Positions 11,455 through 38,214 of a stretch of DNA of 64,000 nt are shown in pieces (positions within the stretch are counted from its first letter, which is position 1; the number at the start of each line of letters is the position of its first letter). The stretch is from positions 20,627,018 to 20,691,017 of the forward strand of contig NC_081376.1 of assembly GCF_030684315.1 (NCBI RefSeq). Direction: 5' to 3'. This stretch comes from Stegostoma tigrinum (Eukaryota). Under the pieces are notes generated by a model, which saw only the letters and a program-made list of their open reading frames with translations, was not told the origin of the DNA and did no database searches. Made by a program: the position numbers and the translations under genes.

Positions 11455-11935
11455 AGAGATAATGGGAACTGCAGATGCTGGAGAAACCAAGATAACGAAG
11501 TGTGGAGAGATAATGGGAACTGCAGATGCTGGAGAATTCCAAGATAATAAAATGTGAGGCTGGATGAACACAGCAGGCCCAGCAGCATCTCAGGAGCACA
11601 AAAGCTGACGTTTCGGGCCTAGACCCTTCATCAGAAAAGGGAGATGGGGAGAGGATTCTGAAATAAATAGGGAGAGAGGGGGAGGCGGACTGAAGATGGA
11701 TAGAGGAGAAGTTAGGTGGAGAGGAGAGTATAGATTTCGGGCCTAGACCACTGTCTCCTCTCCACCTATCTTCTCCTCTATTCATCTTCGGACCACCTCC
11801 CCCCCCCCTATTTATTTCAGAATCCTCTCCCCATCTCCCTTTTCTGATGAAGGGTCTAGGCCTGAAATGTCAGCTTTTGTGCTCCTAAGATGCTGCTTGG
11901 TCTGCTGTGTTTATCCAGCTCCACAACTTGTTATT
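11455..11935. mobile_element. Non-coding miniature palindromic Penelope derivative (two inverted pLTRs, doubled tail)
   Basis: Minus-strand pLTR to ~11735 followed by plus-strand pLTR ~11750-11935; tail agagataatgggaactgcagatgctggagaa occurs twice at the left end. Confidence 0.8.
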
Positions 11936-11959: not shown

Positions 11960-13314
11960 ATTGGGACCAGCCTTCCTGGTCCCTAGAGCCTGCTCGCGCA
12001 ATTACATAAATTCATGGTTAATCTGATTACTCCTCATTTCAGTCTGCCCCAATAACTAACTCCAACCCCGCTTCCAAAGAATCAATCAACCTCCGTCTTA
12101 AAATATTAACAAAAATATCCACTTGTACCACCTCTGAGGAAGAGAGTTCCAAAAATGATTGAAGATATAAAATCTCCTAATTTATTTATTAAATGGGTGT
12201 TCTTTTAGTTTTGAACAGCAACCCAGAGTTCTGGATTTTCCAACTAGAGGAAACATCCTTTATATCCTGTCAGAACCTCTCAGGATCTTGTGTACTTCAA
12301 AGAAGTCACCTCTTTCTCATCCAAACTCTCCTGAATACCAGGTGAGCTTGACCACTTTTTCTTAAGAGTCTACCTGTTGCTTTTGGGAATGAGTCAGTTA
12401 AATCTCTAAACTGCTTCCCATGCGTTTACTTGCTATCTTAAATAAGAAAACAAATTCTGTATGCCACTCCAGACATGATCGTATCAATGCTTGTTACAAC
12501 TGAACCATAACCTCCATACTTAATATATTAAATTTCTGTTGCAATAAATTATAACATTCTGTTACCATTGTTAATTACTTGCTGTTTCTGCATATTAACT
12601 TTTGTGATTTGTGTATTAGGACACATTACTTTGCAACTCTGTAATTGCTCACTATTTAAAAATGCACTTTTTTATTCTTCACACAAAATGGACAATTTCC
12701 CCTGTCCTCAAGTTGTCACGTACCCTCCTTTTTCACGTAACTTATTTATATATATTAATATATACCTTACCTACATATGTAGCCTTCATATTTCATGTTT
12801 ACAACTTGCCTTCCTACCTTTCTTTGTGTCATCAGCAGATTTAGCAACCATAATTTCAATATCTTTATCTAAAGTAACATATAAATTGTAAAAAGCTCAG
12901 CACTGATCCCTGTGGCACACTACTTGTTACATCTTGCCAAACAAGAAAAGACCTACTTATGCCTACTCGTTCTTCCCTGTTAGCTGCTAAATCTACTAGT
13001 CTTGCTGATGTATTACCACCTGCATCATGAGTCTTTAATTTCTGCAATAACTTTTGGTGTGGCACCTTATCAAGTTTGTTCTGGAAATCAAAGTTCCATC
13101 CATCTTTTATCCATGTCCTTTTTATCCAAAATAGCACATTTAATTTCCTTAAAGAATTTCAATAAATTGGTCAAATGTGATATCTCTTTCATAAAAATAT
13201 ATTGACTCTTCCTAATTACCTTAAATGTTTTGAAATGCACTGCTATAATGTCTTTAATATTAGCTTGTCATACCTTCACTATGATGAATGTTAAGCCAAC
13301 TGGACTATCATTTT
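11960..13314 (-). mobile_element. Decayed CR1-clade LINE, continuing after the Penelope insertion to about 16100
   Basis: ORF 12865-13137 reads DFQNKLDKVPHQKLLQKL...VTSSVPQGSVL (RT motifs DFxKAFDKVPH and GVPQGSVL). Confidence 0.75.
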
Positions 13315-15650
13315 AATAAAATGTGAGGCTGGATGAACACAGCAGGCCAAGCAGCATCTCAGGAGCACAAAAGCTGACGTTTCGGGCCTAGACCCTTCAT
13401 CAGAGAGGGGGATGGGGGGAGGGAACTGGAATAAATAGGGAGAGAGGGGGAGGCGGACCGAAGATGGAGAGTAAAGAAGATAGGTGGAGAGAGTGTAGGT
13501 GGGGAGGTAGGGAGGGGATAGGTCAGTCCAGGGAAGACGGACAGGTCAAGGAGGTGGGATGAGGTTAGTAGGTAGCGGGGGGTGCGGCTTGGGGTGGGAG
13601 GAAGGGATGGGTGAGAGGAAGAACCGGTTAGGGAGGCAGAGACCGGTTGGACTGGTTTTGGCATGCAGTGGGTGGAGGGGAAGAGCTGGGCTGGTTGTGT
13701 GGTGCAGTGGGGGGAGGGGATGAACTGGGCTGGTTGAGGGATGCAGTAGGGGAAGGGGAGATTTTGAAACTGGTGAAGTCCACATTGATACCATATGGCT
13801 GCAGGGTTCCCAGGCGGAATATGAGTTGCTGTTCCTGCAACCTTCGGGTGGCATCATTGTGGCAGTGCAGGAGGCCCATGATGGACATGTCATCAAGAGA
13901 ATGGGAGGGGGAGTGGAAATGGTTTGCGACTGGGAGGTGCAGTTGTTTTTTGCGAACTGAGCGGAGGTGTTCTGCAAAGCGGTCCCCAAGCCTCCGCTTG
14001 GTTTCCCCAATGTAGAGGAAGCCGCACCGGGTACAGTGGATGCAGTATACCACATTGGTAGATGTGCAGGTGAACCTCTGCTTGATGTGGAATGTCATCT
14101 TGGGGCCTGGGATGGGGGTGAGGGAGGAGGTGTGGGGACAAGTGTAGCATTTCCTGCGGTTGCAGGGGAAGGTGCCGGGTGTGGTGGGGTTGGAGGGCAG
14201 TGTGGAGCGAACAAGGGAGTCGCGGAGAGAGTGGTCTCTCCGGAAAGCAGACAGGGGAGTGGATGGAAAAATGTCTTGGGTGGTGGGGTCGGATTGTAAA
14301 TGGCAGAAGTGTCGGAGGATAATGCGTTGTATCCGGAGGTTGGTAGGGTGGTGTGTGAGAACGAGGGGGATCCTCTTGGGGCGGTTGTGGCGGGGGCGGG
14401 GTGTGAGGGATGTGTCGCGGGAAATGCGGGAGACGCGGTCAAGGGCGTTCTCGATCACCGTGGGGGGAAAGTTGCGGTCCTTAAAGAACTTGGACATCTG
14501 GGATGTGCGGGAGTGGAATGTCTTGTCGTGGGAGCAGATGCGGCGGAGGCGGAGGAATTGGGAATAGGGGATGGAATTTTTGCAGGAGGGTGGGTGGGAG
14601 GAGGTGTATTCTAGGTAGCTGTGGGAGTCGGTGGGCTTGAAGTGGACATCAGTTACAAGCTGGTTGCCTGAGATGGAGACTGAGAGGTCCAGGAAGGTGA
14701 GGGATGTGCTGGAGATGGCCCAGGTGAACTGAAGGTTGGGGTGGAAGGTGTTGGTGAAGTCGATGAACTGTTCGAGCTCCTCTGGGGAGCAAGAGGCGGC
14801 GCCGATACAGTCATCAATGTACCGGAGGAAGAGGTGGGGTTTGGGGCCTGTGTAGGTGCGGAAGAGGGACTGTTCCACGTAACCTACAAAGAGGCAGGCA
14901 TAGCTGGGGCCCATGCGGGTGCCCATGGCCACCCCCTTAGTCTGTAGGAAGTGGGAACACCTCCGCTCAGTTCGCAAAAAACAACTGCATCTCCCAGTCG
15001 CAAACCATTTCCACTCCCCCTCCCATTCTCTTGATGACATGTCCATCATGGGCCTCCTGCACTGCCACAATGATGCCACCCGAAGGTTGCAGGAACAGCA
15101 ACTCATATTCCGCCTGGGAACCCTGCAGCCATATGGTATCAATGTGGACTTCACCAGTTTCAAAATCTCCCCTTCCCCTACTGCATCCCTCAACCAGCCC
15201 AGTTCGTCCCCTCCCCCCACTGCACCACACAACCAGCCCAGCTCTTCCCCCCCACCCACTGCATCCCAAAACCAGTCCAACCGGTCTCTGCCTCCCTAAC
15301 CGGTTCTTCCTCTCACCCATCCCTTCCTCCCACCCCAAGCCGCACCCCCCGCTACCTACTAACCTCATCCCACCTCCTTGACCTGTCCGTCTTCCCTGGA
15401 CTGACCTATCCCCTCCCTACCTCCCCACCTACACTCTCTCCACCTATCTTCTTTACTCTCCATCTTCGGTCCGCCTCCCCCTCTCTCCCTATTTATTCCA
15501 GTTCCCTCCCCCCATCCCCCTCTCTGATGAAGGGTCTAGGCCCGAAACGTCAGCTTTTGTGCTCCTGAGATGCTGCTTGGCCTGCTGTGTTCATCCAGCC
15601 TCACATTTTATTATCTTGGAATCTCCAGCATCTGCAGTCCCCATTATCTC
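13315..15650 (-). mobile_element. Penelope-like retroelement (Neptune-type), 5'-truncated palindromic insertion
   Basis: Left arm 13315-~14955 (-) has an uninterrupted frame with RT motifs QTKGVAMGTRMGPSYA, RYIDD and FLD, the Cys linker CNRRKCYTC, and GIY-YIG VVYCIHCTRCGFLYIGET..RFAEH. Right arm ~14956-15650 (+) is an inverted copy of the 3' part. TSD ctggactatcatttt at 13300-13314 and 15650-15664. Confidence 0.95.
15522..15553 (+). ncRNA. Minimal type I hammerhead-ribozyme-like motif in Penelope pLTR
   Basis: ct-CTGATGA-a-GGGT-ctag-GCCC-GAAA-c-GTC-ag has both catalytic core boxes, stem II and a GUC cleavage triplet; identical copy at 38072-38103; activity not shown. Confidence 0.7.
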
Positions 15651-16302
15651 TGGACTATCATTTTCCTGCTTTCTGTCACCACTTTTTTAAAGCAATTGCA
15701 TTTGCTGTTTTCCTATCTAATGGAGCCTTCGTCAAATTTTGGAAAACTAAAACCAACTATCCGAATGGCCAGTTCTTCTCAGGTCTGAGAATGAAGTGCA
15801 TCAGGACAGGGACTTGTCATCCCTCAGCTCTGACAATTTAAAGAGTACCTCTTTCCTGGTGATTGTAATTTCTTGAGTTCTCCCATAACATTTCCAAATT
15901 AACAGTTATTTCTGGGATGTTACTGCTATTCTCTATAGTGGATACTGATGCAAAATACTGGTTTAATTCATCTGCCTTTTTATTTTCCATTATTAATTCT
16001 CCAGATTCAATTTCTATGCTTATTTTGTTAACTATTTTCTTTGATAAATATCTTCAGAAACTCATTATCTGATCTTATATTTCTAGCCAGAGTTTTCTTG
16101 CACTCTAATTTTTTCATCTTTATTAATTTGAGTTAACTTGATTTGAAGGTACAATCTCAGGATTCCAAACCAGGTCTGTGGCCACTATACTACCACATTG
16201 ACAAAGGTCAGCATAGCAGTGGTTAAGGACTTGATGGTTGGCAGTTTTGGCAGTGAAGCTGAAATTCTTTTCTGTTACAGGTGACTGTTCAAGGCTAACA
16301 CA

Positions 16303-16431
16303 ATGAATACAAGTCCAGGCACAGTTGGCAGTGACCCTGTCATCCTGGCCACTGCTGGTTATGATCACACGGTCCGCTTCTGGCAAGCACACAGCGGTAT
16401 CTGCACTCGAACTGTGCAACATCAGGATTCT
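16303..16431 (+). CDS. MLST8: MLST8 (mTOR-associated protein LST8 homolog) coding exon 1 of 8
   Basis: [43 protein letters not shown] matches the vertebrate mLST8 N-terminus; acceptor at 16280; donor GTATCTGT at 16432. Confidence 0.98.
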
Positions 16432-19167
16432 GTATCTGTACCAAATTGTATGTGTTTGTTTGGACCTGATTATTTCTGTGGTTCATGTACATAGACACCC
16501 AGGTCACTCTCAAGACCCAAAAATTCACAGTCTCACCTTTCGAAAAATAATCAGTGTCATTGAACTTCTCTTACCAAGTTGTACTCATTCAACTTCTCTA
16601 TCCCTCTGCAGTCTTTTTATGTCTTCCACACTGCTAACTTTACACTTAACTTGCACCATGCCCAGACTCTGATACTTTGCATTCAGTTCCCTCCTCCAAG
16701 TTATTGATATAACTTGTAAAAAACTCAGGCCTAAGCATTAACCATATCTTTTTACAGTTGCCAACAGTAACATATTTCTTCTATTCTTACCTACTCTTTC
16801 CTCTCTTTTAACCAATCTTTATCCAGTGCAAATATTGCCAATCCCATGAGTCCTAAGTTTGTTGTATAAGCTTTTGTGTGACAATTTATCAAATGTTTTT
16901 TGGAAGTCAAAGACCCTCTGTACTCATTGGAATTTAGAAGAATATAGAAACAAAAAAAATTATGGAGGGAAAAGGTAAGAATGAAGCAGGGAGGTTGTTT
17001 CCGCTGGCGGGTGAAACAAGAGCTAGGGGGCATACTTCAAAATAAGTGGGAACAGATTTAAAACTGAGTTAAGGGGAAACTTCTTCACCTGAAGAGTTGT
17101 GAATCTGTGGAACTCCCTGCCCAGTGCAGCAGATGAGGCTACCTTGTTGAATGTTTTTCAGGCAAAAATAGATATAACTTTGAATAGTAAAGAAATTAAG
17201 GGTTTGTAGTGAGCAGATAGGTGAGTGGAACCGAGTCCACGAAAAGATCAGCCATGATCTTATTCAATGGTGGAGCAGGCTTGACAGGGCACGTGGCCTC
17301 CTATTTCTTACGTTTTTATTTGCTAGATCTCCCTTATCCGTCCTGCTTGTTACATATTCAAAAAATGCCATCAGATTTGTCAAAAGTAAATTTGCATTGA
17401 CTCTGTTTATCATACTATCATTTTCCAAGTACCCTGTTACCACATTCCTAATAATAGATTCTACGATTTTGTCTGCTACTAATGTAAAACTAAATGTCCT
17501 ACCAATCCCCATGTTCTGCCTTTCTCCTTTTTTAAACAGCAAGGTTATGTTTGCTCCTGTCCAATCCTTAGGAATTCTTCTGGAATCTGTGGGGTTATGG
17601 TAGACCAAATAGTTTTGGAAAATCAGGCATCCAGATTAAATATTTTTAAAAATCCTGTTTTGAGCAAGCATGAACTTCTTGTGTCCTGTCCCTAGCAGCT
17701 ATGGATCTACATGATTATCTTCCATAAAGGGACTGTGAGCACACCTCAATTCACAATCTCCATAGTAAGTGAACTAGCCCACTCTACAATGCACTGTTGC
17801 AGATACGTCCCACATACATCGTGGAAACAGACCGTTCACTCCAACTTGTTTATGCTGAACAAGCTTCCCAAATTAAACTCATCCCACTTGCTTGTGTTTG
17901 GCCCATATCACTCTAAACCTTTTGTATTCATGTACCTGTCCAAATGTCTTGTAAATTTTGTAACTGTGCCTTCCATCTCCCATTTCCTCTGCAGTTCATT
18001 CCACCTAGCAACCACCTTCTGTGTGATGAAGTTTTCCTTCAAGTCCCTTTTAAATCTTTTCCTCTCATCTTAAAAATATGCCCTGTAGTTTTAAACTCCC
18101 CTATCCTAAGGAAATCGTTTCTGAACCCCATCCAATTTAATAATATCCTTCGTATAGCATAGTGACCAGAATTGTATACAGTATTCCAAAAGTGGCCTCA
18201 CCAACATTCTGTACAACCTCAACTTGACATCCCAACTCCTATACTTAGTGGTCCGAGTAAGCTTGCTAAATGCATTCTTAGCCACTCTGTGTCCTTTTCA
18301 TGGGACATTCAAAGAACTATGTAGCTGAACCCCTGGGTATCTCCATTTCATATCACTACCCAAGGCCCTACCATTAAGTATATAAATCCTGCCCTTGTTT
18401 GTTTTACCAAAATGCAGTACCTCGTATTTATCCAAATTAAACTCAGTCTGCCGCTCCTAAGCCCATTGGCCCAATTGTTCAAGATGCCATTTTAATCTTA
18501 GATAACCTTCTTCACTCTCTGTTATGTCACCAATTTAGGTATCATCCGCAATCTTACTAACATGCCTCTTAAATTGTCATCTAAATCCTACCTCTTGACT
18601 CACACCAAGCCTGCTTCCAGCTGTTTATCTTTCGTATGCTGTTCAACTTAATGTATGATCCCTGAGAAGTCTATGCATTCCCATAGGTCTATGGATCACA
18701 ATTGCAAAATATTAATTTAGATAGAAATGTGAATGAGTATCGCCTTGTTGCATAAACAGCATGTGTACAGCAACATTCAGATAAACAGCAGTTTAATAAA
18801 TTACACGGTTGATTGCACGTACCCTGCCTATACCATTATACAAGGATATGTAGTAGTTGATGCAGCATACGTTTAATGGACAGCAGACATTATGCCTGTA
18901 TTTTAAGTAACGTCGCAAATATGCAGAATTCAGGATTTGTTACAGGAAGTCCCATAAAAACTTATAATATGTATGGCTTCTTCATGACAAGCTTCTTCGT
19001 GACCATTTAATGTGTAGAGTGAACGAGCATCACTGCCTGCACATTTATGCAATCAAAATCACCAGTGAAATCTTCAGTGTTTTATTGAAGATCCAGCTAG
19101 GAGCTAAGTTTGCAAATGACTGTGAATTCCTCTTTCATTTATTCTGCTTCCTTAACAAAGTTTCCAG

Positions 19168-19219
19168 CAAGTGAATGCCTTGGAAATCACCCCAGACCGC
19201 AGTATGATTGCAGCAGCAG
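19168..19219 (+). CDS. MLST8: MLST8 coding exon 2
   Basis: QVNALEITPDRSMIAAA(G); acceptor ttccag preceded by TTCCTTAAC; donor gtaagc. Confidence 0.97.
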
Positions 19220-20053
19220 GTAAGCAGAGTTTATACTGTATTACAAAGAACCCTACAGCACAGGAACAGGCCCTTCAGCCCTCCAAGCTTGCGCCGATCA
19301 AGATCCTCTGTCTAACCTGTCATCTATTTTCTAAGGGTCAGTGTCCATTTGCTCCCTGCCCATCCATGTACCTGTCCAAATATATCTTAAAAGATGCTAA
19401 CGTGTCTGCGTCTATCACCTCCGCTGGCAACGCATTCCAGGCACCCACCACCCTCTGTGTAAAGAACTTTCCACGCGTATCTCCCTTAAACTTTCCTCCT
19501 CTCACTTAGATCTCATAACCCCTAGTATTCTTCATGGTTTTTAATCAGCCCTGTAGTAATGACCCTTGCACCTAACTCCATACTGGGAAATGTGCAATAA
19601 TTGAATTCCTTATCAAGAGTGAAAATATAATCATTGTTTGATATACAACTTGTGTTTAGTTGAAATGAAATTAGTAACTGATGCACGCATTACTCTTAAC
19701 ATCAGGTATTCTTACATCCATAGGTTGGCTTCCCCATGGGTGAGAGAAGGAAAGGAGGGATGCCTTTCTCATTCTCTGTTCTTATTCAAGGCGTATCAAT
19801 TATTGTACTCATGCCCGACACACTTAATTTTCCTGAAATTAACATTATTTATGTAACAAAAACATTATTTCCCCAACGGGCCTGATGCATCGTGTTTTGT
19901 GCTTACTTTCTGAAGAACAAGAGCTTCGTTTTCGACCATGTCTCTGCACAGTCTTATAACACAGAGTATGATTTGAACCATGTTATGTGATGTAAAATGT
20001 GCACACATTGTAAGCGCCACCTGGTAAAGTTACTTTTCTGGTCCACCTTGTAG

Positions 20054-20216
20054 GGTATCAGCATATCCGAATGTATGACCTAAATTCTAACAACCCGAAC
20101 CCAGTCATCAACTATGATGGAGTCAGCAAAAACATCACCTCAGTGGGATTCCATGAGGATGGGCGCTGGATGTATACTGGTGGGGAGGACTGCATGGCAC
20201 GAATCTGGGACCTCAG
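20054..20216 (+). CDS. MLST8: MLST8 coding exon 3
   Basis: [53 protein letters not shown](R); AG/GT boundaries in phase. Confidence 0.97.
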
Positions 20217-21099: not shown

Positions 21100-23390
21100 G
21101 AAGAAAGGCAGGCCGATACAAAAGGTGAATTACAGAAACTTGGTTGTGAGAGGGGCAAGACTGGCAGCTTAACATTCTGGGATTTAGATGTTTCCGGGGT
21201 GTGGTAGAGAGGGATGTAAAAGAGGTGGTGGTGTTGCTTTACTGATTAGAGAGAATATCACAGTTGAACTGAGGGAGGAGACCTTGGAGGGCTCATGCAG
21301 CATGGCCCTAGGGGTAGAGTTCAGGAATAGGAAGGGTACAGTCACTTTGATGGGATAGTATTACAGGCCTCACAATAGCCAGCGATTGATAGAGGAACAA
21401 ATATGTAGACAGATTATGGGAAAAAAACAACAAGGTTGATTTGGTGGGGATTTTGACTTCCCCTATATTGACTGGGACTTGCTTAGTGTCAAGGATTTGG
21501 ATGGGGAAGAATTTGTTAGGTGTGTCCAAGACAAGTTTTTTGTAACAATATGTAAATAGTCCTACTAGGGAATGGGCCATTTTAGAGGAATGAGGCTATT
21601 TAGGTGATGGAAGTTTCAGTGGGAAAGCGTTTTGGAAACAGTGACCCTAATTCTGTAAGTTCTGAAATACTCATGGATAAGGGTAAGAGTCATCCTTGGG
21701 TGAAAGTGGTAAATTGGAGGAAGGCTAATTATAACAATATTAAGCAAAAACTGGGGAATGTAGACTGAAGGCAGCTGTTTCAGGGTAAATCCACATCTGT
21801 TGTGTGAGAATCTTTTAAAGGCTAGTTGATTAGAGTTCAGGTTCAGCATGTTTCTATGCAAATGAAGAATAAGGATGGTAAGGCTTGGGAATCTTGGAAG
21901 ACAAGGAATTGAAAGCTTAGTCAAAAATTGAAAGGAGGCATACAAAAAGTCAAGAAAATGGAAGAAGTACAGACACCTCGAAGAATACAAAGACAGCAGG
22001 AAATAACTCAACAAAGAATTAGATTGGCTAAAGGGGACCATGAAATACCTTTCGCAGATGGGATTTTCTGTGATCCTATAACAATTTGTTCATATGTAAG
22101 GGGCGGCACGGTGGCTCAGTGGTCAGCACTGCAGCCTCACAGCACCAGGGACCCGGATTCGATTCCAGCCTCGGGTAACTGTCAGTGTGGAGTTTGCACA
22201 TTCTCCCCGTGTCTGCGTGGGTTTCCTCTGGGTGCTCTGGTTTCCTCCCACAGTCCAAAGATGTACAGGCTAGGTGGATCGGCCATGTTAAATTGCCCAT
22301 AGTGTTCAAGGGTGTGAGGGTTATTGGGAGATGGGTCTGTGTGTGATGCCCCAAGGGACATGTGGATTTGTTGGGCCAAAGGGCCTGTTTCCACACAGTA
22401 GTGGATCTGATCTAAGGGAAAGGGTAGGTCCACTCAAAAACAAAGGAGGGAATTTATATGTGGAACCAGAGGAAGTGAGTGAGGTCCTTAATAAACACTT
22501 TGCATCAGTATTCACTGAGGAGAAGGGCATGCTGGATGATGAATCCCAGGATGGCTATGTTGATATTGTGGGCATTTCAAGAAACAAAAGGAGGTATTGG
22601 GTGTTTTAAAATGCATTAGGTAGGGAAGGCCCCAGGACCTGATGGGATCTATCCCAGAATGGTGAGGGAGGCAGGTGAGGAAGTTGCTGGGACCCTTGAT
22701 GAAATCTCTGTATGCTCTTTAATCGCAGGAGAGGTCCCATAGGACTAGAGAATAGCCAGTGTTGTTCATTTGTTTAAGAAATGCAAGAGGAATAATCCAG
22801 GAAGTTACAGGCCGGTGAGCTTTACATCAGCAGTAGGGAAATTATTGAAGAAGATTCTTCAGGATAGGATTGACTCACATTTGAAAAGTATGAATTATTA
22901 GTGATAGGCAGTCTGGCTTTGTGCGAGGAAGGTCATGTCATGAGTTTTTTGAGCAAGTGACAAAGTTAATTGATGAGGGTAGGGTGGTAGTTGTTGTCTA
23001 TATGGACTTTAATACGGCCTTTTGGTAGTGTCGAGCAAGGCAGGCTGATACAAAAGGTGAAGTCTAATTGGATCTGTGGTGTGCTGGCAAGATAGTTACA
23101 GAAGAGAGAGAGAGAGTGATGGTGGGAAGGGTAGAGACTTGGGCAGCGAAATGACAGATAGAGTTTAATCCAGATGAATGCGAGGTGACGCATTTTGGGA
23201 AAGGTCTAATGCATGGGAATAGTATACAATAAATGGTAGACCCTTAGTAGCATCAACATACATGGAGATCTAGGCCTGCAGATCCACAATTCCCTGAAAG
23301 TGATAATATTGTCAAGGAGGCATATAGCATGCTTGTCTTCATCGATTGGGGCATAAAAATTGGCAAGTCATGTTACAGCTGTTTAGAACA
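21100..23390 (+). mobile_element. Decayed CR1-clade LINE (endonuclease through RT), interrupted by HE1 SINEs and resuming at ~24560-25000
   Basis: Degenerate ORF2 motifs (gacttcccctatattgactgg = DFPxIDW; LNKHFASVFTEE; ccaggacctgatgggatctatcccaga = PGPDGIYPR; SYGVRLNKL..LELRRMR). Confidence 0.8.
22100..22410 (+). mobile_element. HE1-type tRNA-derived SINE (V-SINE)
   Basis: A box tggctcagtgg, B box gattcgattcc, V-domain gtggagtttgcacattctccccgtgtctgcgtgggtttcc, LINE-like 3' tail gggcctgtttccacac. Confidence 0.9.
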
Positions 23391-23697
23391 TCAGCAGCAT
23401 GCTAGCTCAGTGGTTAGCTCTACTGTCTCACAGAGCCGAGGACCTGGGTTCGATTCCAACATTGGGTGACTGTCTGTGTGGAGTTTGCACCATCTCCCTG
23501 TGTCTGCATGGGTTTCCTCTGCTTGCTCCAGTTTCCTCCCACAATCCAAAGATGTGCAGGCTAGATGGATTTGCCATGCTAAATTGCCTATAGTGTTCAA
23601 GGATGTGTAGATTAGGTGGGTTTTAGGGGGATGGGTGTGGACTTGTTGGACCAAAGGGCCTGTTTCCACACTGTAGGAATTCTGTGATGATCTATGA
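23390..23697 (+). mobile_element. HE1-type SINE
   Basis: Same A/B boxes, V-domain and tail as the 22100 copy. Confidence 0.88.
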
Positions 23698-24231
23698 TAG
23701 TCAAAGAGAAGGAGCAATTGGAGACATTTAGGATGCAGGCCACTGAAAGTGTAGCCACTAACAGTGGAGTAACTGAAACTATACATGTGTAAGGGGCCAG
23801 AATGAGAGGAGCACAGATACCGTGGAGGGTTGTGGGATTATAGAACTGTACAAAGATACATAGACGTGAGGCATTTAAGGGATTCTGGAGTGGACAGACT
23901 GTATCTTTTATTTTTCTGTATTTTTATTGTGGACTTAAATGAGAAAAGAACACTTTTAAAAACCAAGGATCACTGAAGGATTTTGCACATTCCAAAGATA
24001 TGCAAGTCGGGCAGATTTGAAATAAAATGTCCTAAGTGTATAGGCTAGGTGGATTAGACATGGTAAGTGGGGGGATACAGTAGGGGGCTGGGTCTGAGTG
24101 GAAAGCTCTTCAGAGGGTTGGTGTGGACCCAGTGGGCCAAATGGCCGCCTTGTAGAGGTTCTATGAATTCTCTACATACAATTACAAAATGGCTTGGACA
24201 ATGCTAAATGGGCAGAGTCAGTATGACTTTT

Positions 24232-24557
24232 GGGCAGCATGGTGGCTCGGTGGTTAGCACTGCTGCCTCACAGCATCAGGGACCCGGGTTCGATTCCACC
24301 CTCAGGCAACTGTCTGTATGGAGTATCCACGTTCTCCCTGTGTCTGCATGGGTTTTCTCTGGGTGCTTTGGTTTCCTCCCGCAGTCCAAAGATGTGCAGG
24401 CTAGTTGGATTAGAATTGCTAAATTATGCTCAGGGTTCAGGAATATGTAGATCAGGTGGTTATAGGGAGATGAGTTTGGGTGCAAAGCTCTGAGGGTCAG
24501 TATGGACTTGTTGGACCAAAGAGCCTGTTTCCACACTGTAGGGATTCTATGATCTAT
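24232..24557 (+). mobile_element. HE1-type SINE
   Basis: gggcagcatggtggctcggtggttagc...gggttcgattcc...V-domain...cctgtttccacactgtagggattctatg. Confidence 0.88.
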
Positions 24558-26304
24558 GAGCTTTACTTAGGCCACATTTGGACTAATGTGTACAGTCTGG
24601 TCACCACACTGCAAGAAAGATGTGGAGGCTCTGAAGAGAGTACAGAAGTGGTTAACAGGGTATTGTCTGGGTTGGCAGGTGTTAGCTATGGGGTGAGATT
24701 GAATAAACTGTGTCCATTTACTCTTGAACTTCGAAGGATGAGAAGGTGACTTGATAGAAGTTTAACATTAAAAGAATGGATATTTGGAGTTTTTTTTTCC
24801 CCAGGGTAGTAATGTCAGTTACTAGAGGATGTAGGTTTTAGATAAAAGTGGGCAAGTTTTTTACACAGAGGATGGTAAGTGCCTGGAATGTGCTGTGAGA
24901 GGAGGTGCAGGAGGCAGATACATTAGCCACATTTAAGAGGCATCTTGTCCGACGTATGAAAAAAAAGGGAATAGAGGGATACAGACCACATCTTGACAGA
25001 TATATGAAAAGGCTGCCCTGTTCTTTGTTGAACCAGAACACTTCCCAAGTGAAGTATTCTAATTTGAAAATGTAACAACTAATTTACAAACAAGTAGCAA
25101 TGCGTTAATAGCGACATTGCGTTTTTTACTTACTGATGTGATTTGGACATCAATGTTGGCCCAGATGCCAGGGAGAACTCTTCCTCAGATATTACCATGG
25201 GATATTTTATGATCACTCGAGCCTTAGGTTAATATGACACCTCCAACAGTGCAGAACTCCGTCAGTGTTGCATTGGAGTATCTGCCTAGATTTTTACTCA
25301 AGATGCTGAAGTGAAGCTTGAACCCGTAACCACTATAAGCCTGTGTCAAAGGCATGGATATTGATTATTCTTCTATTCATATTTGAATTCTGAAGCTGGG
25401 CCTAATCTCTGAGCAGACATGTACGACAGATGGCAGAATGTTCAGTGCCTCATATTTATGCACATTATGTCACAGGCATGTGTTTAAATTGACAACTTTA
25501 CTCAACATGCAAACAACTTAAGCTAAGGAATCGTTTTGCAGTCTTATCACTGTCCTTCTTAACATTGTGTATTTACTTGATGTCCTATCATGATCATAAC
25601 AATCCACAGAAGAAATGACCATTTCAAAGTCTTGTAAATAAGGAAGTGAAGAGCTTTTACCAAACATGGAAATATTTGAATTCTGCCGCAGAGCTAAGAA
25701 AGTGGAATATGTCACCAATCCACAATATTTAAATAAGGCAGAAGGAGTGCTCATTTATAGATCAAAGAAAGCACTGAAATGCATAATCAGTAAGATGTGG
25801 GTTTGTGGCTATAACTCACACTACTATTCCCATAAATCACATGATAAGGAGATTGACCTCTTTCATCCCACAAACTCATTATTTATTTTAAATCTCTAAC
25901 GATGCCCTGGAAAATAGCACATGATCTTGATTTTAACTTGCAAGGGGATACGGGTGTATGTGTTTTCAGGGAAGGTGTTAAACAAGAAGAAATTGCCATG
26001 ACCTGACATTAACCTACCCACTGCTGTCTTTAACTCATGTGCAATTTGAGGTGGATCTGTGATTTAGATACAGAGACAGGCAATTATCTGAAGATGTAAC
26101 TTTCTTCTGACTTTAACTTGGTTTCCTGGGATGTCTGAAACTTGTCAGGATCCACAAGTTTGGGAGTATAATGGAGATTGATGAACCTGGGAAATTGACT
26201 GCCTGGAAATCTTACACATACTGAACCAAAACAGCTGCTTCTTTTTGTTGTTTGGCAGCACAGAACTTGACTATTTCTGAATAAATGTTCACTTTGTTGA
26301 ATGG

Positions 26305-26465
26305 ATAGTAAGAACTGCAGATGCTGGAGTCAGACATAACACAGTGTGGAGCTGGAGGAGCACAGCAGGCCTGGCAGCATCAGAGAAGCAGGAAAGCTGA
26401 CGTTTCGGGTCAGGTCCCTTTCTTTCTGAAGAAGGGTCCTGACCTGAAATGTCAAATTTCCTGCT
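26305..26465. mobile_element. Short older Penelope pLTR derivative with back-to-back hammerhead-like motifs
   Basis: Minus-strand tail and pLTR ending gacgtttcgggtcaggtccctt, immediately followed by plus-strand ctgaagaagggtcctgacctgaaatgtc. Confidence 0.65.
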
Positions 26466-28868: not shown

Positions 28869-28944
28869 GTCACGTAACCTGCAGTGTCAGAGAATCTTCC
28901 AGGTCAATGCTCCTATTAATTGTGTCTGCCTGCATCCCAATCAG
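28869..28944 (+). CDS. MLST8: MLST8 coding exon 4
   Basis: [25 protein letters not shown]; caacag acceptor, gtaagg donor. Confidence 0.97.
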
Positions 28945-30837
28945 GTAAGGGGCAACACTGCACCCCCAAAACTGCAGACAGACTTTGTATGTCAACCCAC
29001 CCTGAGAAGCTGTGTGTGGTTTGTAATGGAGACATGCAAAGAGTTGAAGCTGGAAATCTTATCTTTCAGTTTAGCCACAGTATGCATTTCCTGCCAGTGT
29101 GTGGCACTGCTGCACTCTGCAAAGTCTCTTTGTAATTTGCTGGTACTAATTGGGCTGGTGATCAGATCCAGTCTGACTTAAAATGCCTTGTCTGAGTAGC
29201 TCCTAACCTACAAAATCAGCTAAAGCATTGAATGTTTCTGTTGTGAAAATAAAGAATTTAGATAGGATAATAATAGTTACGGTGTTACATCAAAGATTTT
29301 CAGTGCTGGATTTTGTACAAACTGTGTTTGAATACCCATCGAGCACATCAAAGATGCAGACCTTTCAAGACACATCCCAGTTTACTCTGTCGTCCTCCCA
29401 AATGTCAATGACACTGTGCTTCTCTTTACAAGGGATTTCAATTCTTCACTTCCGAAAAATCAGCCTTGAATTCCCTTTGAAGTCACTTCTTTACAGACAG
29501 CCTCAATGATAGTTCACATCCCGGCACCTTAAACCCCTCTCCTGACATTCTCTCCCTGGATTCTTGAAACTACACTCCAGCTACTTAAAGATCCAATTCC
29601 AGCTTTTCTTCACACTGCTATTTTCTGTAAGCTAGCACTGTCGCTGGGTTTCTCCGAGCTCCAGTCTTTCTTAGCTGCTGCAAATAATCTGGACTTCAAT
29701 CACCCCCTCCCAGCTGCTCTGGACAAATTAGTGACTTTCAGGGCTCTTTCAAACCCCAATGACTCTAATTTTCCTGAGCCTTACCCCAACACTTTCCTGC
29801 ACCTACTGACTCCCCTGATTTCTCTGAGCCCTGACTGCTTAGAATATGTTAAAGCACACCTTTTCAGGATGGGACTCTTTCTCCCTGCTGCTGTAAATTT
29901 ATCCTTTATCGTTGTCATGGGTTTTATAGCATGGATTTGCACCGTTCCCTGTCCCATGGCCAATTTTTCGTCCTCTGCAATCCTATGGGTGCACTTTTGA
30001 CATCCATATGGTCAAGCCCTTTAATATGTAAAACAAAACGACAGAGGGTAAATATATCCTGTCACACTGCTGTTCTGAGTATGTGCTGGGACTTCAGGGC
30101 CTACCAAGGAAAGAAAATCCTTGCCAGAGACAGAAGTCAGAGAGGTTTGAGTTTTGAAACCGGTTGAAGAAGGTAGCAATGCTGAAATCATATGATGACC
30201 AGTTAGTAATAGTTAGGGTATAGCGGGGCAGCTGAAGGTCTGAAATTCAATGCTGATGGATGCCTCGACTATGAATTACGTCTCCATATTATGGCATATG
30301 GCAATAATAGATTATTCTTTTAGAGACTGGATTAATGATCAACTCTCACAGCACATTGGGAAGTCATTCTCCTATGCTAGCTCTTTGAAAGAGTTCTCGA
30401 ACCAGCTCCACTCCATCCGTATAGCTATGCTAAATTTTCTTTGAAAGTATAAATCAAATTCCTTTTTGAAAAACATTATTGAATTTGCTTCTTCCATCTT
30501 TTTAGATAGTGCATTCCAAATCACCATAACATGCTGTATAAAAGAAAATTCCCATCATCTTCCCTGATACTTTTGCCAAAGACATTTAAACCATATTTTC
30601 TGATCTAGTCTATTAAAATGACCTCAGAATTTTGAACTCCTCTCATTATATTTCTCTACTTTAAGGAGAACAACCACTGAATTGCTTATCAATGAAGTCT
30701 TTAATTACTAGTAATGTCTGAATGTCATTGCAGAAATTATGGGTCATTCGGCTCAACAATGTTAACAGTATCGGCTCCAGGTGTGTTCATGAGCTCATCC
30801 TCACATGGAATGTAAAACCTTTTTGGACCGTGGACCA

Positions 30838-33746
30838 GAGATAATAGGAACTGCAGATGCTGGAGAATCCAAGATAACAAAGTGCGAAGCTGGATGAACA
30901 CAGCAGGCCAAGCAGCATTTCAGGAGCTCAAAAGCTGATGTTTCGTGTCTAGACCCTTCATCAGAGAGGGGGATGGGGAGAGGATTCTGAAATAAATAGG
31001 CAGAGAGGGGGAGGCGGACCGAAGATAGATAGAGGAGAAGATAGGTGGAGAGGACAGTATAGGTGGGGAGGGGTTATGTCAGTCTGGGGAGGACGGACAG
31101 GTCAAGGAGGTGGGATGAGGTTAGTAGGTGGGAAATGGAGGTGTGGCTTGAGGTGGGAGGTGGGGATAGGTGAGAGGAAGACAGCAGTGGGGCGAGGGGA
31201 CGAGCTGGGCTGGTTTTGGGATGCAGTGGGGGAGGGGACGAACTGGGTTGGTTTAGGGATATAGTGGGTGAAGGGGAGATTTTGAAGCTTGTGAAGTCCA
31301 CTTTGACACCATTGGGCTGCAGGGTTCCCAAACGGAATATGAGTTGCTGTTCCTGCAACCTTTGGGTGGCATCATTGTGGCACTGCGAGAGGCCCAGGAT
31401 AGACATGTCGTCTAAGGAGTGGGAGGGGGAGTTAAAGTGGTTTGCGACTGGGAGGTGCAGTTATTTATTGCGAACTGAGCGGAGGTGTTCTGCAAAGCGG
31501 TCCCCAAGCCTCCGCTTGGTTTCCCCAATGTAGAGGAAGCCACACCAGGTACAATGGATACAGTATACCACATTGGCAGATGTGCAGGTGAACCTCTGCT
31601 TAATGTGGAAAGTCATCTTGGGGCCTGGGATGGGGGTGAGAGAAGAGGTGTGGGGGCAAGTGTAGCATTTCCTGCGGTTGTAGGGGAAGGTGCCGGGTGT
31701 GGTGGGGTTGGAGGGCAGTGTGGAACGGACAAGGGAGTCACGGAGAGAGTGGTCTCTCCGGAAGGCAGCTAAGGGTGGGGATGGAAAAATGTCTTGGGTG
31801 GTGGGGTCGGATTGTAGATGGCGGAAGTGTTGGTGGATGATGCGTTATATCCGGAGGTTGGTGGGATGGTATGTGAGAACGAGGGGGATTCTCTTAGGGC
31901 GGTTATTGTAGGGGCAGGGTGTGGGGGTGTGTTGCAGGAAGTGCGGGAGACACGGTCAAGGGCGTTCTCGACCACTGCTGTGGGGGGTTGGCGTGCGGTC
32001 CTTGAAGAAGGCGGACATCTGGGATGTGCGGGAGTGGAATGCCTCATCCTGGGAGCAGATGCAGCGGAGGCGAAGGAATTGGGAATAGGGGATGGAATTT
32101 TTGCAGGAGGGTGGGTGGGAGGAGATGTATTCTAGATAGCTGCGGGAGTCAGTGGGCTTGAAATGGACATCAGTTTCTAGCTGGTTACCTGAGATGGAGA
32201 CAGAGAGGTCCAGGAAGGTGAGGGATGTGTTGTAGATGGCCCAGGTGAACTTGAGGTTGGGGTGGAAGGTGTTGGTGAAGTGGATGAACTGTTTGAGCTC
32301 CTCTTGGGAGCAAGAGGCGGCACCGATACAGTCATCAATGTAACGGAGGAAGAGGTGGGATTTGGGGCCAGTGTAGGTGCGGAAGAGGGACTGCTCCACG
32401 TAACCTACAAAGAGGCAGGCATAGCTGGGGCCCATGCGGGTGCCCATGGCCACGCCCTTTGTAGGAAGTGGGAGGAATCGAAAGAGAAGTTGTTGAGGGT
32501 GAGGACGAGTTTGGCTAGGCGGATGAGGGTGTCGGTGGAGGGGGACTGGTCGGGCCTGCGGGACAAGACGAAGCGGAGGGCCTTGAGGCCATCTGCATGA
32601 GGAATGTAGGTGTATAGGGACTGGACGTCCATGGTGAAAATAAGGTGTTGAGGACCAGGGAATTGGAAGTTCTGGAGGAGGTGGAAGGTGAGGATGGTGT
32701 CACGGACGTAGGTGGGGAGTTCCTGGACGAAGGGGGAGAAAATGGAGTCCAGATAGGTGACATCCGGATACAACGCATCATCCTCCGACACTTCCGCCAT
32801 CTACAATCCGACCCCACCACCCAAGACATTTTTCCATCCCCACCCTTGTCTGCCTTCCGGAGAGACCATTCTCTCCATGACTCCCTTGTCTGCTCCACTC
32901 CCCTCCAACCCCACCAGACCTGGCACCTTCCCCTGCAACCGCAGGATGTGCTACACTTACCCCCACACCTCCTCCCTCACCCCCATCCCAGGCTCCAAGA
33001 TGACTTTCCATATTAAGCAGATGTTCAGTGTCGTATACTGTATCCACAGTACCCATTGTGACTTCCTCTACATTGGGGAAACCAAGCAGAGGCTTGGGGA
33101 CCACTTTGCGGAACACCTCCGCTCGGTTTGCAATAAACAACTGCACCTCCCAGTCGCAAACCATTTCCACTCCCCCTCCCCCTCCCATTCCTTAGACGAC
33201 ATGTCTATCCTGGGCCTCCTGCAGTGCCACAATGATGCCACCCAAAGGTTGCAGGAACAGCAACTCATATTCCACTCGGGAACCCTGCAGCCCAATGGTA
33301 TCAATGTGGACTTCATCAGCTTCAAAATCTCCCCTTCCCCCACTGCATCCCAAAACCAGCCCAGCTCGTCCCCTCCCCCAAATGCATCCCATAACCAGCC
33401 CAGCTTGTCCCCACCTCCCTAACCTGTTCTTCCTCTCACCTATCCCCTCCTCCCACCTCAAGCCACACTTCCATTTCCCACCTACTAACCTCATGCCTGC
33501 CTCCTTGACCTGTCCGTCCTCCCAGGACTGACCTGTCCCCTCTCCACCTCCCCACCTATACTCTCCTCTCCACCTATCTTCTCCTCTATTCATCTTTGGT
33601 CTGCCTCCCCCTCTTTCCCTATTTATTTCAGAACCCTCTCCCCATCAACCCTCTCTGATGTAGGGTCTAGGCCCGAAACGTCAGTCTTGGTGCTCCTGAG
33701 ATGCAGCTTGGCCAGCTGTGTTCATCCAGCTCCACACTTAGTTATC
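30838..33746 (-). mobile_element. Penelope-like retroelement, palindromic insertion, older and frameshifted
   Basis: Left arm 30838-~32760 (-) extends furthest into RT (LPTYVRDT, FTMDVQSLYT, AMGTRMGPSYA, RYIDD); right arm ~32762-33746 (+) encodes linker and GIY-YIG. TSD ttggaccgtggacca at 30823-30837 and 33747-33761. Confidence 0.95.
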
Positions 33747-33803
33747 TTGGACCGTGGACCATGTGGATCTTATCCATGGGATATTGTCACTATTGTTTTA
33801 CAG

Positions 33804-33956
33804 GCAGAGCTGATTGTTGGTGATCAGAGTGGTGCCATTCACATCTGGGACCTGAAAACTGACCACAATGAGCAGCTAATTCCCGAGCCAGATGTTTCAG
33901 TCAATGCAGTTCACATTGATCCGGATGCAAGTTACATGGCAGCTATCAATAGTTCG
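33804..33956 (+). CDS. MLST8: MLST8 coding exon 5
   Basis: [51 protein letters not shown]; ttacag acceptor, gtaagt donor. Confidence 0.98.
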
Positions 33957-34307
33957 GTAAGTGACATTGAACCATGAGCAGTACATATCTTCATTTGTGC
34001 TCTAACTAGACTGAGGCATAGAGTCATACAGCATGGAAACAGACTCTTCGGTCCAATCAACCAGGTTCCCAAACCGAACTAGTCCCACTTGCCTGCATTT
34101 GGCCCATTATTTCTCTAACCTTTCCTATTCATGTACTTATCCAATTGTAACTCTACCTGCATTCACCACTTCTTCTGGCAGTTCACTCTCTTGTGTAAAA
34201 ATGTTGCTGCTTGTGTCCTTTTTGAATTTTTCTCCTCTCACCTTAAAAATATGCTTAAAAATAAAAATATGAACTAACTCCATGCCAGGGAAAAGATCCT
34301 TGTCAGT

Positions 34308-34470
34308 CACTTCATCTATAATTTAGGAAATGACACTTCATCTATAATTTAGGAAATGACAGATGAGTTTTTCCGGAACAGTGCTGTTGGGTGGGAGAAG
34401 GGACCTGGTGCTGGGCTGTGGGAGCAGGGACCTGGTACTGGGCTGTGGGAGCAGGAGCCCGGTGCTGGTG
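34308..34470. repeat. Two short tandem duplications
   Basis: 25-bp unit cacttcatctataatttaggaaatg(a) twice at ~34308-34359; 27-bp unit gggacctggtgctgggctgtgggagca about 2.5 times at ~34400-34470. Confidence 0.8.
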
Positions 34471-34807
34471 AATGGGAGGTGTGGGGCCTGTGTTAAAACA
34501 GTGGGATTGATGAAACGAGTGCTGGTGGGAGATTATGCAACCAACTGTCAACCTAATCTTACTTCCTGCCGAACACTTGTTTCACTGCAATTTCAGTGCA
34601 CAGTGGCACTGAGCTGTTTTTCCTTGTCCATCAAACTTTGTGTCTGGAGTCAGTAGTGCTTTTTTTGTTTGTCACACTGATGTTCAGCCTTCTCATGCTT
34701 CTGCTAATGCTTCTTCTGTTTGAAGGGGTTGATCCCCTCCCTTGGTCAATACTTTCCATAAAATCTTAGCAGATTAATTGATTTCTCTGTTCTTTCTTTA
34801 TCTCCAG

Positions 34808-34932
34808 GGTAATTGCTACGTGTGGAATCTAACAGGTGGAATTGGTGATGATGTCACTCAGCTCATTCCCAAGACCAAGATCCCAGCTCACAAACGCTAT
34901 GCTCTACGCTGCAAATTCAGCCCTGACTCCAC
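34808..34932 (+). CDS. MLST8: MLST8 coding exon 6
   Basis: [41 protein letters not shown](T); ctccag acceptor, gtaggt donor. Confidence 0.98.
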
Positions 34933-36670
34933 GTAGGTTCTTCCATTTCTGTGATATCATAATCTGCTATCAAACTGTCTGCTCAGTGTCGTAAGTGGGT
35001 CTGAAGTATTTCGGAAATGATAGTTCATTTTATACCTCCTGCAAAATACTTTGCTTCCTGAGACCCGCTATATGACTGACTGTATCACTTGGCTGGTTGA
35101 CTGGTTTGTGATGCAGAATGATGCAAACAACATGCGCTTAATTTCCATACCAGCTAAGGTCACCATGAAAATTCCATCTTCTTGACCTTGATCCTCACCT
35201 GACAAACAGTAACGAAGGTTAAATTACTACCAGTCATATCTCTCTAATGAGACAGCAGTTCTCTGGTCCTCAAGGTCTACTGCGGCTTTACATATGTTTT
35301 TAGATTAATCTGTAAGAGAGCATAGTTTAGGCAAACAATGACCCTACCCTCTTTGAATGTATGCAATAGGAACGATAGATCCATGCAGGGACAAATTACA
35401 CCCTGAATAGGCCAACAGTGCGCTTCACCAGATCAACTATTTCAAAGTGATAAATGTCTGAAAATTTTGCAATTTTTTTCATCCATTTGTTTTGTTTAAT
35501 GTAAAGTCGAGCAACAAACTAGACATGATGAAATAATTCCGTTCCAAACTTTGTACTGAATCAGTAGACTCTATCTTACAGTATTTGTTGTCAGCACTTA
35601 CCCTAGTTTTGCTACTTCAAGTACACAATGGCACTGATGCATATTTCTCTTGTCCATCAAATGTTGCGCTGGGAAGTCAATAGCGATTCTCTGCTGTCGC
35701 ACTGATGTTCAGCCTTGTGTTTCCGTTATTCCTTGACCTCTTTGGAGGAGATAGTTTCCTCCCTTAGTCAATATTATCCAAAAAAAGGTTAGCAAAATTC
35801 ATTTATGGCACCCAAGAGACCATTCAGCTTCAATGCTGGCTCTCTGAGAAGAAATCAGTTCAATGCTGCCTCTCCATCTGCATAGTCCTGCAAGTTATTT
35901 CCCTAAAGTGCCTATCCAGCTTCTTTTTGAAATTATTTATCAGTTTCACTTTCACCACTGTCATTCTGGGTGATTAGAATTTGGTACACTAAAGATAAAA
36001 TTCTACCTTGCCTCCCCTGTATTTCTTTTCTGAAAACCTTAGATTTGTGTCCTCGTAGTGCTTGGACTTTAGCTAACGGCAACAGCATTAATTTATCTTT
36101 ATTATAATTTAACACAGCCCTCTTATGACATCGCCTCAATCTCTTCTGCTCAATGGAGAACAACTGCAGCTTCTCCAACCTATCCTTGTAGCCACAATCA
36201 CTAATCCATCCAACATTTGGGTAAATATCTTCATTGAATCATCCTGCCTTCCACATACGGCTGCTAACTCTCCCTATATAACAGTTGCTACATTCTAAGT
36301 AATTAGTTAGGTGTGATACTCTTTAAGTTGTTCCTGGAGATATGCTAAGCACAGATCTGTCTCACATTTAAATTGTGATATGTCATTGCAACCACCAACT
36401 GAGAAGAATACAACATTAATTGGGGAAAAAAAGCAAAAAGAAAATGCAGATGTTAGAAATACAGAACATTAATTGGGCACTGAAAACAAAGATGTATAAC
36501 AATTTTCTTCAACAAAGTGCTTAATATCTGTTTTGGCTATAAAAAAGGACTGTGTCCCACCATGCTGCCACCTTGGCAATCAGGAGGGAGTAGCCGGAGG
36601 AATTACTCAACATTGACTCTGGACTACATAGCACCAGGTCAGACATGGACAAGGAAACTTCCAGCTGAGT

Positions 36671-38198
36671 TAATGATAATAAAATGTGAGGCTGGATGAA
36701 CACAGCAGGCCCAGCAGCATCTCAGGAGCACAAAAGCTGACGTTTTGGGCCTAGACCCTTCATCAGAGAGGGGGATGGGGTGAGGGTTCTGGAATAAATA
36801 GGGAGAGAGGGGGAGGCGGACCGAAGATGGAGAGAAAAGAAGATAGGTGGAGAGGAGAGTATAGGTGTGGAGGTAGGGAGGGGATAGGTCAGTCCAGGGA
36901 AGACGGACAGGGCAAGGAGGTGGGATGAGGTTAGGAGGTAGGAGATGGAGGTGCGGCTTGGGGTGAGAGGAAGAACAGGTTAGGGAGGCAGAGACAGGTT
37001 GGACTGGTTTTGGGATGCAGTGGGTGGAGGGGAAGAGCTGGGCTGGTTGTGTGGTGCATTGGGGGGAGGGGACGAACTGGGGTGGTTTTGGGATGCGGTG
37101 GGGGAAGGGGAGATTTTGAAGCTGATGAAGTCCACATTGATACCATTGGGCTGCAGGGTTCCCAAGCGGAATATGAGTTGCTGTTCCTGCAACCTTCGGG
37201 TGGCATCATTGTGGCACTGCAGGAGGCCCATGATGGACATGTCATCTAAAGAATGGGAGGGGGAGTGGAAATGGTTTGCGACTGGGAGGTGCAGTTGTTT
37301 ATTGCGAACCGAGCGGAGGTGTTCTGCAAAGCGGTCCCCAAGCCTCTGCTTGGTTTCCCCAATGTAGAGGAAGCCACACCGGGTACCGTGGATGCAGTAT
37401 ACCACATTGTCAGATGTGCAGGTGAACCTCTGCTTAATGTGGAAAGTCATCTTGGGGCCTGGGATAGGGGTGAGTGAGGAGGTGTGGGGGCAAGTGTAGC
37501 ATTTCCTGTGGTTGCAGGGGAAGGTGCCGGGTGTGGTGGGGTTGGAGGGCAGTGTGGAGCGAACAAGGGAGTCACGGAGAGAGTGGTCTCTCCGGAAGGC
37601 AGCTAAGGGTGGGGATGGAAAAATGTCTTGGGTGGTGGGGTCGGATTGTAGATGGCGGAAGTGTCGGGGGCAGCTCAATAGTATCAATGTGGACTTCACC
37701 AGCTTTAAAATCTCCCCTTCCCCCACCGCATCCCAAAACCAGCCCAGTTCGCCCCCTCCCCCCACTGCACCACACAACCAGCCCAGCTCTTCCCCTCCAC
37801 CCACTGCATCCCAAAACCAGTCCAACCTGTCTCTGCCTCCCTAACCTGTTCTCCTCTCACCCATCCCTTCCTCCCACCCCAAGCCGCACCTCCATCTCCT
37901 ACCTACTAACCTCATCCCACCTCCTTGACCTGTCCATCTTCGCTGGACTGACCTATCCCCTCCCTACCTCCCCACCTATACTCTCCTCTCCACCTATCTT
38001 CTTTTCTCTCCATCTTCGGTCCGCCTCCCCCTCTCTCCCTATTTATTCCAGAACCCTCACCCCATCCCCCTCTCTGATGAAGGGTCTAGGCCCGAAACGT
38101 CAGCTTTTGTGCTCCTGAGATGCTGCTGGGCCTGCTGTGTTCATCCAGCCTCACATTTTATTATCTTGGATTCTCCAGCATCTGCAGTTCCCATTATC
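36671..38198 (-). mobile_element. Penelope-like retroelement, palindromic insertion (linker and GIY-YIG portion only)
   Basis: Left arm 36671-~37667 (-) has CNHRKCYTC and VVYCIHGTRCGFLYIGET; right arm ~37675-38198 (+). TSD acttccagctgagt at 36657-36670 and 38199-38212. Confidence 0.95.
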
Positions 38199-38214
38199 AC
38201 TTCCAGCTGAGTAC

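Follow-up and report, generated by a model that had tools for sequence, protein, structure and literature searches.

Insertions in the window

The window analysed here, a stretch of 64,000 nucleotides from Stegostoma tigrinum (contig NC_081376.1, positions 20,627,018 to 20,691,017), harbours three insertions, E1 to E3, of a Penelope-like element (PLE). In each of them two arms of the element are joined head to head within a single target site duplication (TSD), and only one of the two outer ends carries a tail (Table 1). The geometry of these insertions and of a 200-locus sample points to paired, staggered nicks that would both prime reverse transcription. Element positions are numbered relative to site 0, the base on which tail-less ends finish.

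An earlier note on this DNA had described the three head-to-head insertions, and they were recovered in the sequence at the same coordinates, together with their TSDs of 15, 15 and 14 bp. The TSDs are not extendable, and each of the three strings occurs exactly twice in the window. E1 and E3 carry the tail on their short arm and E2 carries it on its long arm, in agreement with that note. While its one-sidedness held as well, the tail measures 33–35 nt instead of 40 nt; furthermore, the quoted tail string is exact for E3 but not for E1 and E2, and the tail-less end of E3 has four additional bases.

Arm-to-arm identity amounts to 99.4% in E1, 87% in E2 and 94% in E3, with divergences at aligned bases of 0.6%, 8.7% and 3.4%, respectively. 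Since the arms diverge by 0.6–9%, the three insertions are separate events of differing age and not the product of assembler mirroring. E2 is the oldest of them, whereas E1, whose long arm reaches about 1640 nt upstream, belongs to a young subfamily. The first five TSD bases of E2 are identical to the first five tail bases, probably reflecting microhomology at the priming site. A conspecific short-read contig, which may come from the assembled individual, spans the left junction of E1 (12903–13337) with zero differences. In a related organism contigs from three of three runs match the left flank of E1 up to 13312 and continue with 24 letters foreign to the element, as would be expected of an empty site.

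Table 1 Features of the window (RT stands for reverse transcriptase, ORF for open reading frame and pLTR for pseudo-long terminal repeat).
Feature	Position	Strand	Remark
E1 left TSD (15 bp)	13300..13314		
E1 long arm, tail-less	13315..14956	-	ends 3 nt short of site 0 (C of ...ATTATC)
E1 short arm with tail	14955..15649	+	2-nt central overlap with long arm
E1 tail	15616..15649	+	34 nt
E1 right TSD (15 bp)	15650..15664		
E2 left TSD (15 bp)	30823..30837		
E2 long arm with tail	30838..32759	-	tail 30838-30872, 35 nt
E2 short arm, tail-less	32760..33746	+	
E2 right TSD (15 bp)	33747..33761		43 nt upstream of MLST8 exon
E3 left TSD (14 bp)	36657..36670		
E3 long arm, tail-less	36671..37670	-	4 extra bases at outer end
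E3 short arm with tail	about 37670..38198	+	
E3 tail	38166..38198	+	33 nt, plus 2 nt common to TSD
E3 right TSD (14 bp)	38199..38212		
Fourth, older head-to-head copy, one-sided tail	11507..11934		no TSD detected
Open ORF remnant in E1 long arm	13628..14956	-	C-terminal RT motifs, thumb, CX4CxxC linker, GIY-YIG endonuclease with CCHH
Hammerhead-like core in pLTR (E1)	15520..15551	+	CUGAUGA at 15524, GAAAC; predicted cut after 15551

Element identity

Judged from its protein, the family is a very abundant Penelope-like retrotransposon with a linker of the Neptune/Nematis type and not a member of Penelope/Poseidon. The ORF remnant of E1 matches Pfam GIY-YIG with E 6.5e-4, which is below the curated cut-off. 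A 716-aa frame at locus L099 contains KPADKGG (the DKG motif) plus a GIY-YIG domain at its C-terminus, and its Pfam matches (RVT_1, E 1.7e-4; GIY-YIG, E 1.9e-4) likewise stay below the curated cut-offs. The CCHH motif, whose two cysteines lie between GIY and YIG, reads VVYCIHCTRCGFLYIG ... EHL ... NHF. Between RT and endonuclease lies the linker CNRRKCYTC (CX4CxxC), and since Penelope/Poseidon lack such a linker the family falls outside them; the name Penelope used in the earlier note is thus correct in the broad sense and not for the clade. The clade label, Neptune or Nematis, follows the definitions in PMC8557442. No RNase H family matched the 715-aa RT-endonuclease frame at E up to 0.1, the N-terminal part being outside the scan, and a homodimer prediction with the N-terminal 165 aa lacking an alignment spoke neither for nor against a dimer.

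The full unit at L066 is composed of an inverted arm, a 177-nt direct pLTR upstream, the 3.5-kb unit and the tail. In the full units (L066/L067, L099, L105, L164) the tail passes directly into leader and ORF. Consequently, the end of the tail is not the end of the RNA and both start sites are internal, so that the start at the RNA end proposed in the earlier note found no support. Throughout the 3.2-Gb genome 97,554 exact 31-mer copies of the pLTR-end core were counted versus 50,572 of the 31-mer entering the tail. As for the hammerhead-like core of the pLTR, E1 positions 15520 and 15552 correspond to −95 and −63. At the gathering threshold Rfam gave no match in the window, this core included; the minimum free energy fold of the pLTR end differs from the hammerhead fold (z 0.24), and helix I has just about 2 bp.

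Tail rule and target site

For the counts, 200 loci on contig C1, a single chromosome, were located by pattern searches, 64 of them anchored on the core and hence not selected for a tail, 136 anchored on the tail; the last 60 loci were analysed later under identical rules. They comprise 121 inverted, 72 single-arm and 7 complex loci, the latter being excluded from the counts. TSD statistics were limited to loci with a TSD score of at least 8.5 (104 of the 121 inverted and 34 of the 72 single-arm loci), a threshold reached by 2 of 400 mismatched flank pairs, and L070, a gapped both-tailed pair, was removed from them. For arm-length tests only two-piece, one-tailed elements were used. Loci L001–L030 (3 kb) were only inspected.

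Exactly one tail was found in 116 of the 121 anchored inverted copies and two tails in five, while none of the 121 lacked both; among inverted copies with a TSD the tail is one-sided in 103 of 104. A copy with neither tail is detectable only among the 34 core-anchored inverted copies, and all of these (34/34) are one-sided, in line with the non-random tail position claimed in the earlier note. Sixteen incidental pairs comprised 12 one-sided, three tail-less (one with TSD) and one both-tailed. Individual both-tailed cases are a palindrome at L138:1090-2115 (oriented copy), which has no TSD and whose arms both break at −475, and an insertion at L113 with a clean 14-bp TSD.

The TSDs of inverted copies have a median length of 15 bp and measure 13–17 bp in 94 of 104 cases. 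Those of single arms are shorter (median 12, n=34, p=1e-8). TSD length and microhomology did not correlate significantly (rho 0.18, p 0.14). In the rebuilt empty sites, on either strand, the frequency of A reaches 0.54, 0.65 and 0.49 at positions −8, −7 and −6 beyond the TSD edge, against a background of 0.29. This motif is visible for each side separately and was repeated in the 60 later loci. The target, being A-rich 6–8 nt outside both edges, is evidently two-fold symmetric. In single arms with TSDs of at most 12 bp (n=18) the far-side T-rich motif remains 20–23 nt from the primed nick (37/72, p=6e-5, in windows chosen post hoc) instead of shifting with the TSD end (21/54, p=0.08). These short TSDs look as if the same cut had been made and the unprimed overhang trimmed afterwards.

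Tail-less ends fall mostly at −6 to +4 and tailed ends at +29 to +44. At both kinds of end the mean microhomology with the target is about 2.0 nt compared to 0.8 nt in simulations (p<0.001, subsets free of anchoring bias), a value which target preference could inflate. Added bases were present at 10 of 71 tail-less ends. In their sequence both outer ends look like priming events.

Arms and central junctions

The tail arm is the longer one in 21 of the first 67 and 12 of the 28 later pairs, the shorter one in 21 and 6, and equal in 25 and 10, respectively. The tail thus resides on the longer or the shorter arm alike (33:27), arguing against a fold-back of the first strand. Arm lengths are strongly coupled (rho 0.73): of 108 pairs, 52 have both arms of at most 105 nt, 47 have both arms longer and only nine are mixed (p=5e-21). 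Furthermore, rare alleles common to partner arms number 4.5 per kb, about six times the 0.76 per kb found between non-partners within a subfamily. The central junctions contain inserts in 26 of 68 cases and overlaps of 0–1 nt in another 26 of 68, and therefore resemble the end-joining of two cDNAs and not self-priming. Among long-long pairs near-equal breakpoints (5/28) did not exceed permutation (p 0.09).

A single master palindrome behind the mini-elements was rejected, as their centres differ from copy to copy. Subfamily discordance between partner arms was likewise discarded as proof of two RNAs: 0 of 24 pairs combined young and old arms, and within subfamilies the differences are few and the p values nominal. 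The central insert of L046 is similar to telomeric repeats and may represent slippage on similar nearby element sequence; at L032, L108, L135 and L213 pieces from the 5' part or the middle of the unit are captured between the arms.

Truncation hot spots

Breakpoints accumulate at −98 to −86 (41/134). Counted genome-wide with the same three-letter prefix, arm starts number 198 at −95 and 170 at −63, compared to 21 at −73 and 14 at −50 as controls, the −50 pattern capturing one of two variants. Among the starts listed and counted by hand, a G precedes 63 of 100 at −95 versus 34 of 100 at −63 (p 7e-5) and, for the two controls, 5 of 35 (p 5e-7). In read contigs the cDNA strand has one additional C at the −95 joints. 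We read −95 as a probable capped 5' end copied by the RT; cap copying occurs with other RTs. The −63 starts, located exactly at the predicted site after GUC, would represent the hammerhead cut, suggesting that cleaved RNA serves as a template in vivo. Both hot spots are thus most likely features of the sense RNA.

Other features of the window

In the fourth head-to-head copy both arms break at about −179, and a partial tail duplicate precedes it at about 11455–11505. Close by (window 10599–11403) a young single arm, 10695–11365, has inserted into an older family member precisely at the tail boundary, with an 8-bp duplication; this nested insertion suggests that the endonuclease nicks the tail region of its own element. 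Additional short fragments of the family are found at 8371–8699, 26314–26420, 46363–46450 and 58246–58359, and at 8520–8699 a tail is joined to the 5' start of the unit. An exon at 33804–33896, which starts 43 nt past the right TSD of E2, matches LST8 (MLST8; E 3e-17). Other dispersed repeats (families of about 300 bp and about 250 bp) lie at 22101–24559 and 61768–62037 as well as at 1996–2251, 17813–18083 and 34022–34254.

Discussion

The spacing of the cuts, the symmetry of the target, the tail rule, the coupling of arm lengths and the hot spots can be read directly from the inserted copies. To connect them we infer a dimer, an order of events, strand displacement and a cap. Two molecules of the element's protein, probably forming a dimer, would read the two-fold symmetric target and nick both strands 14–15 nt apart, leaving two 3' overhangs. 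Both 3'-OH ends would then pair with sense RNA over about 2 nt and prime there. One would start at site 0, the other about 35 nt downstream; both starts would be internal to the transcript, matching the in vitro data for anole Poseidon, and the stretch between them would become the tail. One RNA segment would serve both polymerases; as there is no RNase H, the polymerase that started downstream would either displace the upstream cDNA or follow behind it. With the 5' pLTR as template, synthesis would run off at the capped −95 or the hammerhead-cut −63 end and yield mini-palindromes, and with the 3' pLTR as template both arms would become long. Finally, the free cDNA ends would be end-joined and filled in, which would leave two arms head to head, a single tail and a TSD of full length. 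Priming at a single nick would give a single arm, and trimming of its unprotected overhang would account for the shorter single-arm TSD.

That two nicks prime at all, be it on one RNA or two, we hold to be rather likely, in agreement with the earlier note, whose proposals of one integration event per TSD and of priming at both nicks of a 14–15-nt staggered cut are supported. That both nicks prime on one and the same RNA segment, with the cDNAs end-joined, has in our judgment a slightly better than even chance. The earlier note had left the choice between two RNAs and template re-use open, and the data lean towards re-use without settling it. Two separate RNAs, usually of one donor locus and held together by a protein dimer or a double hammerhead, are an unlikely explanation, but one to be taken seriously: minimal PLE hammerheads have been proposed to act as dimers (PMC4209133), five old pairs (L044, L085, L110, L134, L141) differ at three to four linked diagnostic sites (nominal p 0.001–0.03), and the nine mixed-length and five both-tailed pairs would be accommodated. 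Independent RNAs, however, predict mixed arms in about half of the pairs (33 of 67 expected, 5 seen) and leave the rule of exactly one tail without a reason. Moreover, 0 of 24 long pairs combine the young and the old subfamily, which may not have been active together.

In the published model an antisense transcript primes itself at the palindromic centre and the endonuclease resolves the hairpin so that one end keeps the tail (PMC3846280, PMC8557442). It predicts the correlated arm lengths (rho 0.73) and the shared alleles, 25 of 67 centres are symmetric within 10 nt, and the endonuclease can hit its own tail boundary, where arm 10695–11365 of the window lies inside an older copy. We nevertheless judge it improbable for this family, as the centres are mostly without pairing (the 26/68 inserts and 26/68 overlaps of 0–1 nt), truncations occur at features of the sense RNA (the cap-like G at −95, the hammerhead cut at −63), and the outer ends scatter across about 10 nt and show microhomology as well as added bases, like priming and unlike ligated cut ends. 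Far less probable still is a fold-back, in which one nick primes and the first cDNA copies itself towards its start, halting about 35 nt short. Although same-donor arms, correlated lengths and the single tail would follow from it, the tail-less arm could never outreach the primed one, yet in 21 of the first 67 pairs, in 6 of the 28 later ones and also in E1 and E3 it is longer by more than 10 nt; the excess reaches about 1.9 kb, and 27 of 95 pairs contradict the model. That two insertions hit one spot in succession, or that the assembly is at fault, we consider practically out of the question. The family does insert into its own older copies (window 10599–11403), but a single TSD encloses both arms, the centres printed contain no central TSD copy, rare alleles are common to the arms in spite of 0.6–9% divergence, and the short-read contig confirms the left junction of E1.

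Several points weigh against double priming on one RNA as we favour it. Both-tailed and tail-less pairs exist, so that the one-tail rule is strong and not absolute, and 9 of 108 pairs combine a short arm with a long one. Gene conversion between the arms, or two RNAs from a single donor, could have produced the shared rare alleles, and the extra G at −95 could be an untemplated addition at a strong stop instead of a copied cap. The windows for the far-side motif were set with the first logo already seen, a TSD went undetected in 38 of the 72 single-arm loci and in 17 of the 121 inverted ones, and the sample covers one chromosome and two young subfamilies. For anole Poseidon, the main text of PMC11167929 reports no homology between the cut DNA and the start site, no difference in start site between the strands and no RNA reads whose ends coincide with the hammerhead cut. 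Every step of the model is deduced from inserted copies.

The architecture on its own is ordinary, and the earlier note overstated it: the legend of Fig. 2 in PMC8557442 already depicts a one-sided 30–40-bp tail with a single TSD, and PMC3846280 describes the same structure with 8–10-bp TSDs and an empty site, proposing antisense self-priming. What is new is the family member and the sample counts. About 100,000 exact 3'-end copies, inserted into unique DNA with clean TSDs, render the insertion geometry countable, and the counts argue against both fold-back and the published antisense self-priming. The origin of the inverted repeats and the one-sided tail of PLEs is named an open question in PMC8557442; the counts turn it into specific in vitro predictions regarding target motif, stagger, two starts and one RNA. 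Our literature search found no paper stating double priming for inverted PLE insertions, with older subscription Penelope papers outside the search, so that its absence is unproven. The passages on these elements in PMC3681739, PMC8969392 and bioRxiv 10.64898/2026.07.22.740005 add no mechanism.

Whether PLEs in general insert by symmetric double target-primed reverse transcription, with a dimer, a bipartite target, a fixed 14–15-nt stagger and one RNA copied twice from adjacent internal starts, seems to us evenly balanced. If true, it would explain the tail, the inverted pLTR, the mini-palindromes and the shorter single-arm TSD together, and would show hammerhead-cut RNA to be an in vivo template. 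Double-nick priming also matters for annotation, as the mini-palindromes resemble miniature inverted-repeat transposable elements, and for insertion tools based on retroelements.

Comparison with known systems

With the canonical PLE insertion (PMC8557442, Fig. 2; Pen2a_Av in PMC3846280) the present family has in common the inverted, 5'-truncated copy adjoining the 5' end, a 30–40-bp tail that is often confined to one end, a single TSD enclosing the unit, a hammerhead-like motif in the pLTR and partial tandems (as at L066). It differs from the rotifer examples in its TSD of 14–15 bp instead of 8–10 bp, and in the corresponding passages of both papers tail side, arm length and target symmetry are left uncounted. 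Minimal, probably dimeric hammerheads are described in PMC4209133, where pairs lie on opposite strands at distances of 100–700 bp.

A close biochemical counterpart is Poseidon of Anolis carolinensis (PAc; PMC11167929), which nicks and extends both strands and uses two internal starts that bound the tail, with a predicted dimer; the steps after first-strand synthesis were left unvalidated there. PAc shares the C-terminal GIY-YIG domain and an RNA continuing past the tail. Unlike the present family, it belongs to another clade, lacks the linker zinc finger and prefers ATT for cleavage instead of a bipartite target, and the main text of PMC11167929 does not deal with inverted insertions or TSDs. 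The DKG motif, the CX2-5CxxC linker and the C-terminal CCHH endonuclease connect our element with the Neptune/Nematis clades, whereas the target sites listed show no evident sign of the microsatellite targeting that PMC8557442 proposes for Neptune.

The earlier note had set the overlapping arms apart from LINE-1 twin priming, a distinction borne out here. In twin priming the second-strand nick also primes on the same RNA and produces an inversion inside one TSD, the two cDNAs covering non-overlapping parts of the RNA and the second priming site lying anywhere. In the present family, by contrast, the arms overlap along the whole of the shorter arm, and their starts are fixed about 35 nt apart.

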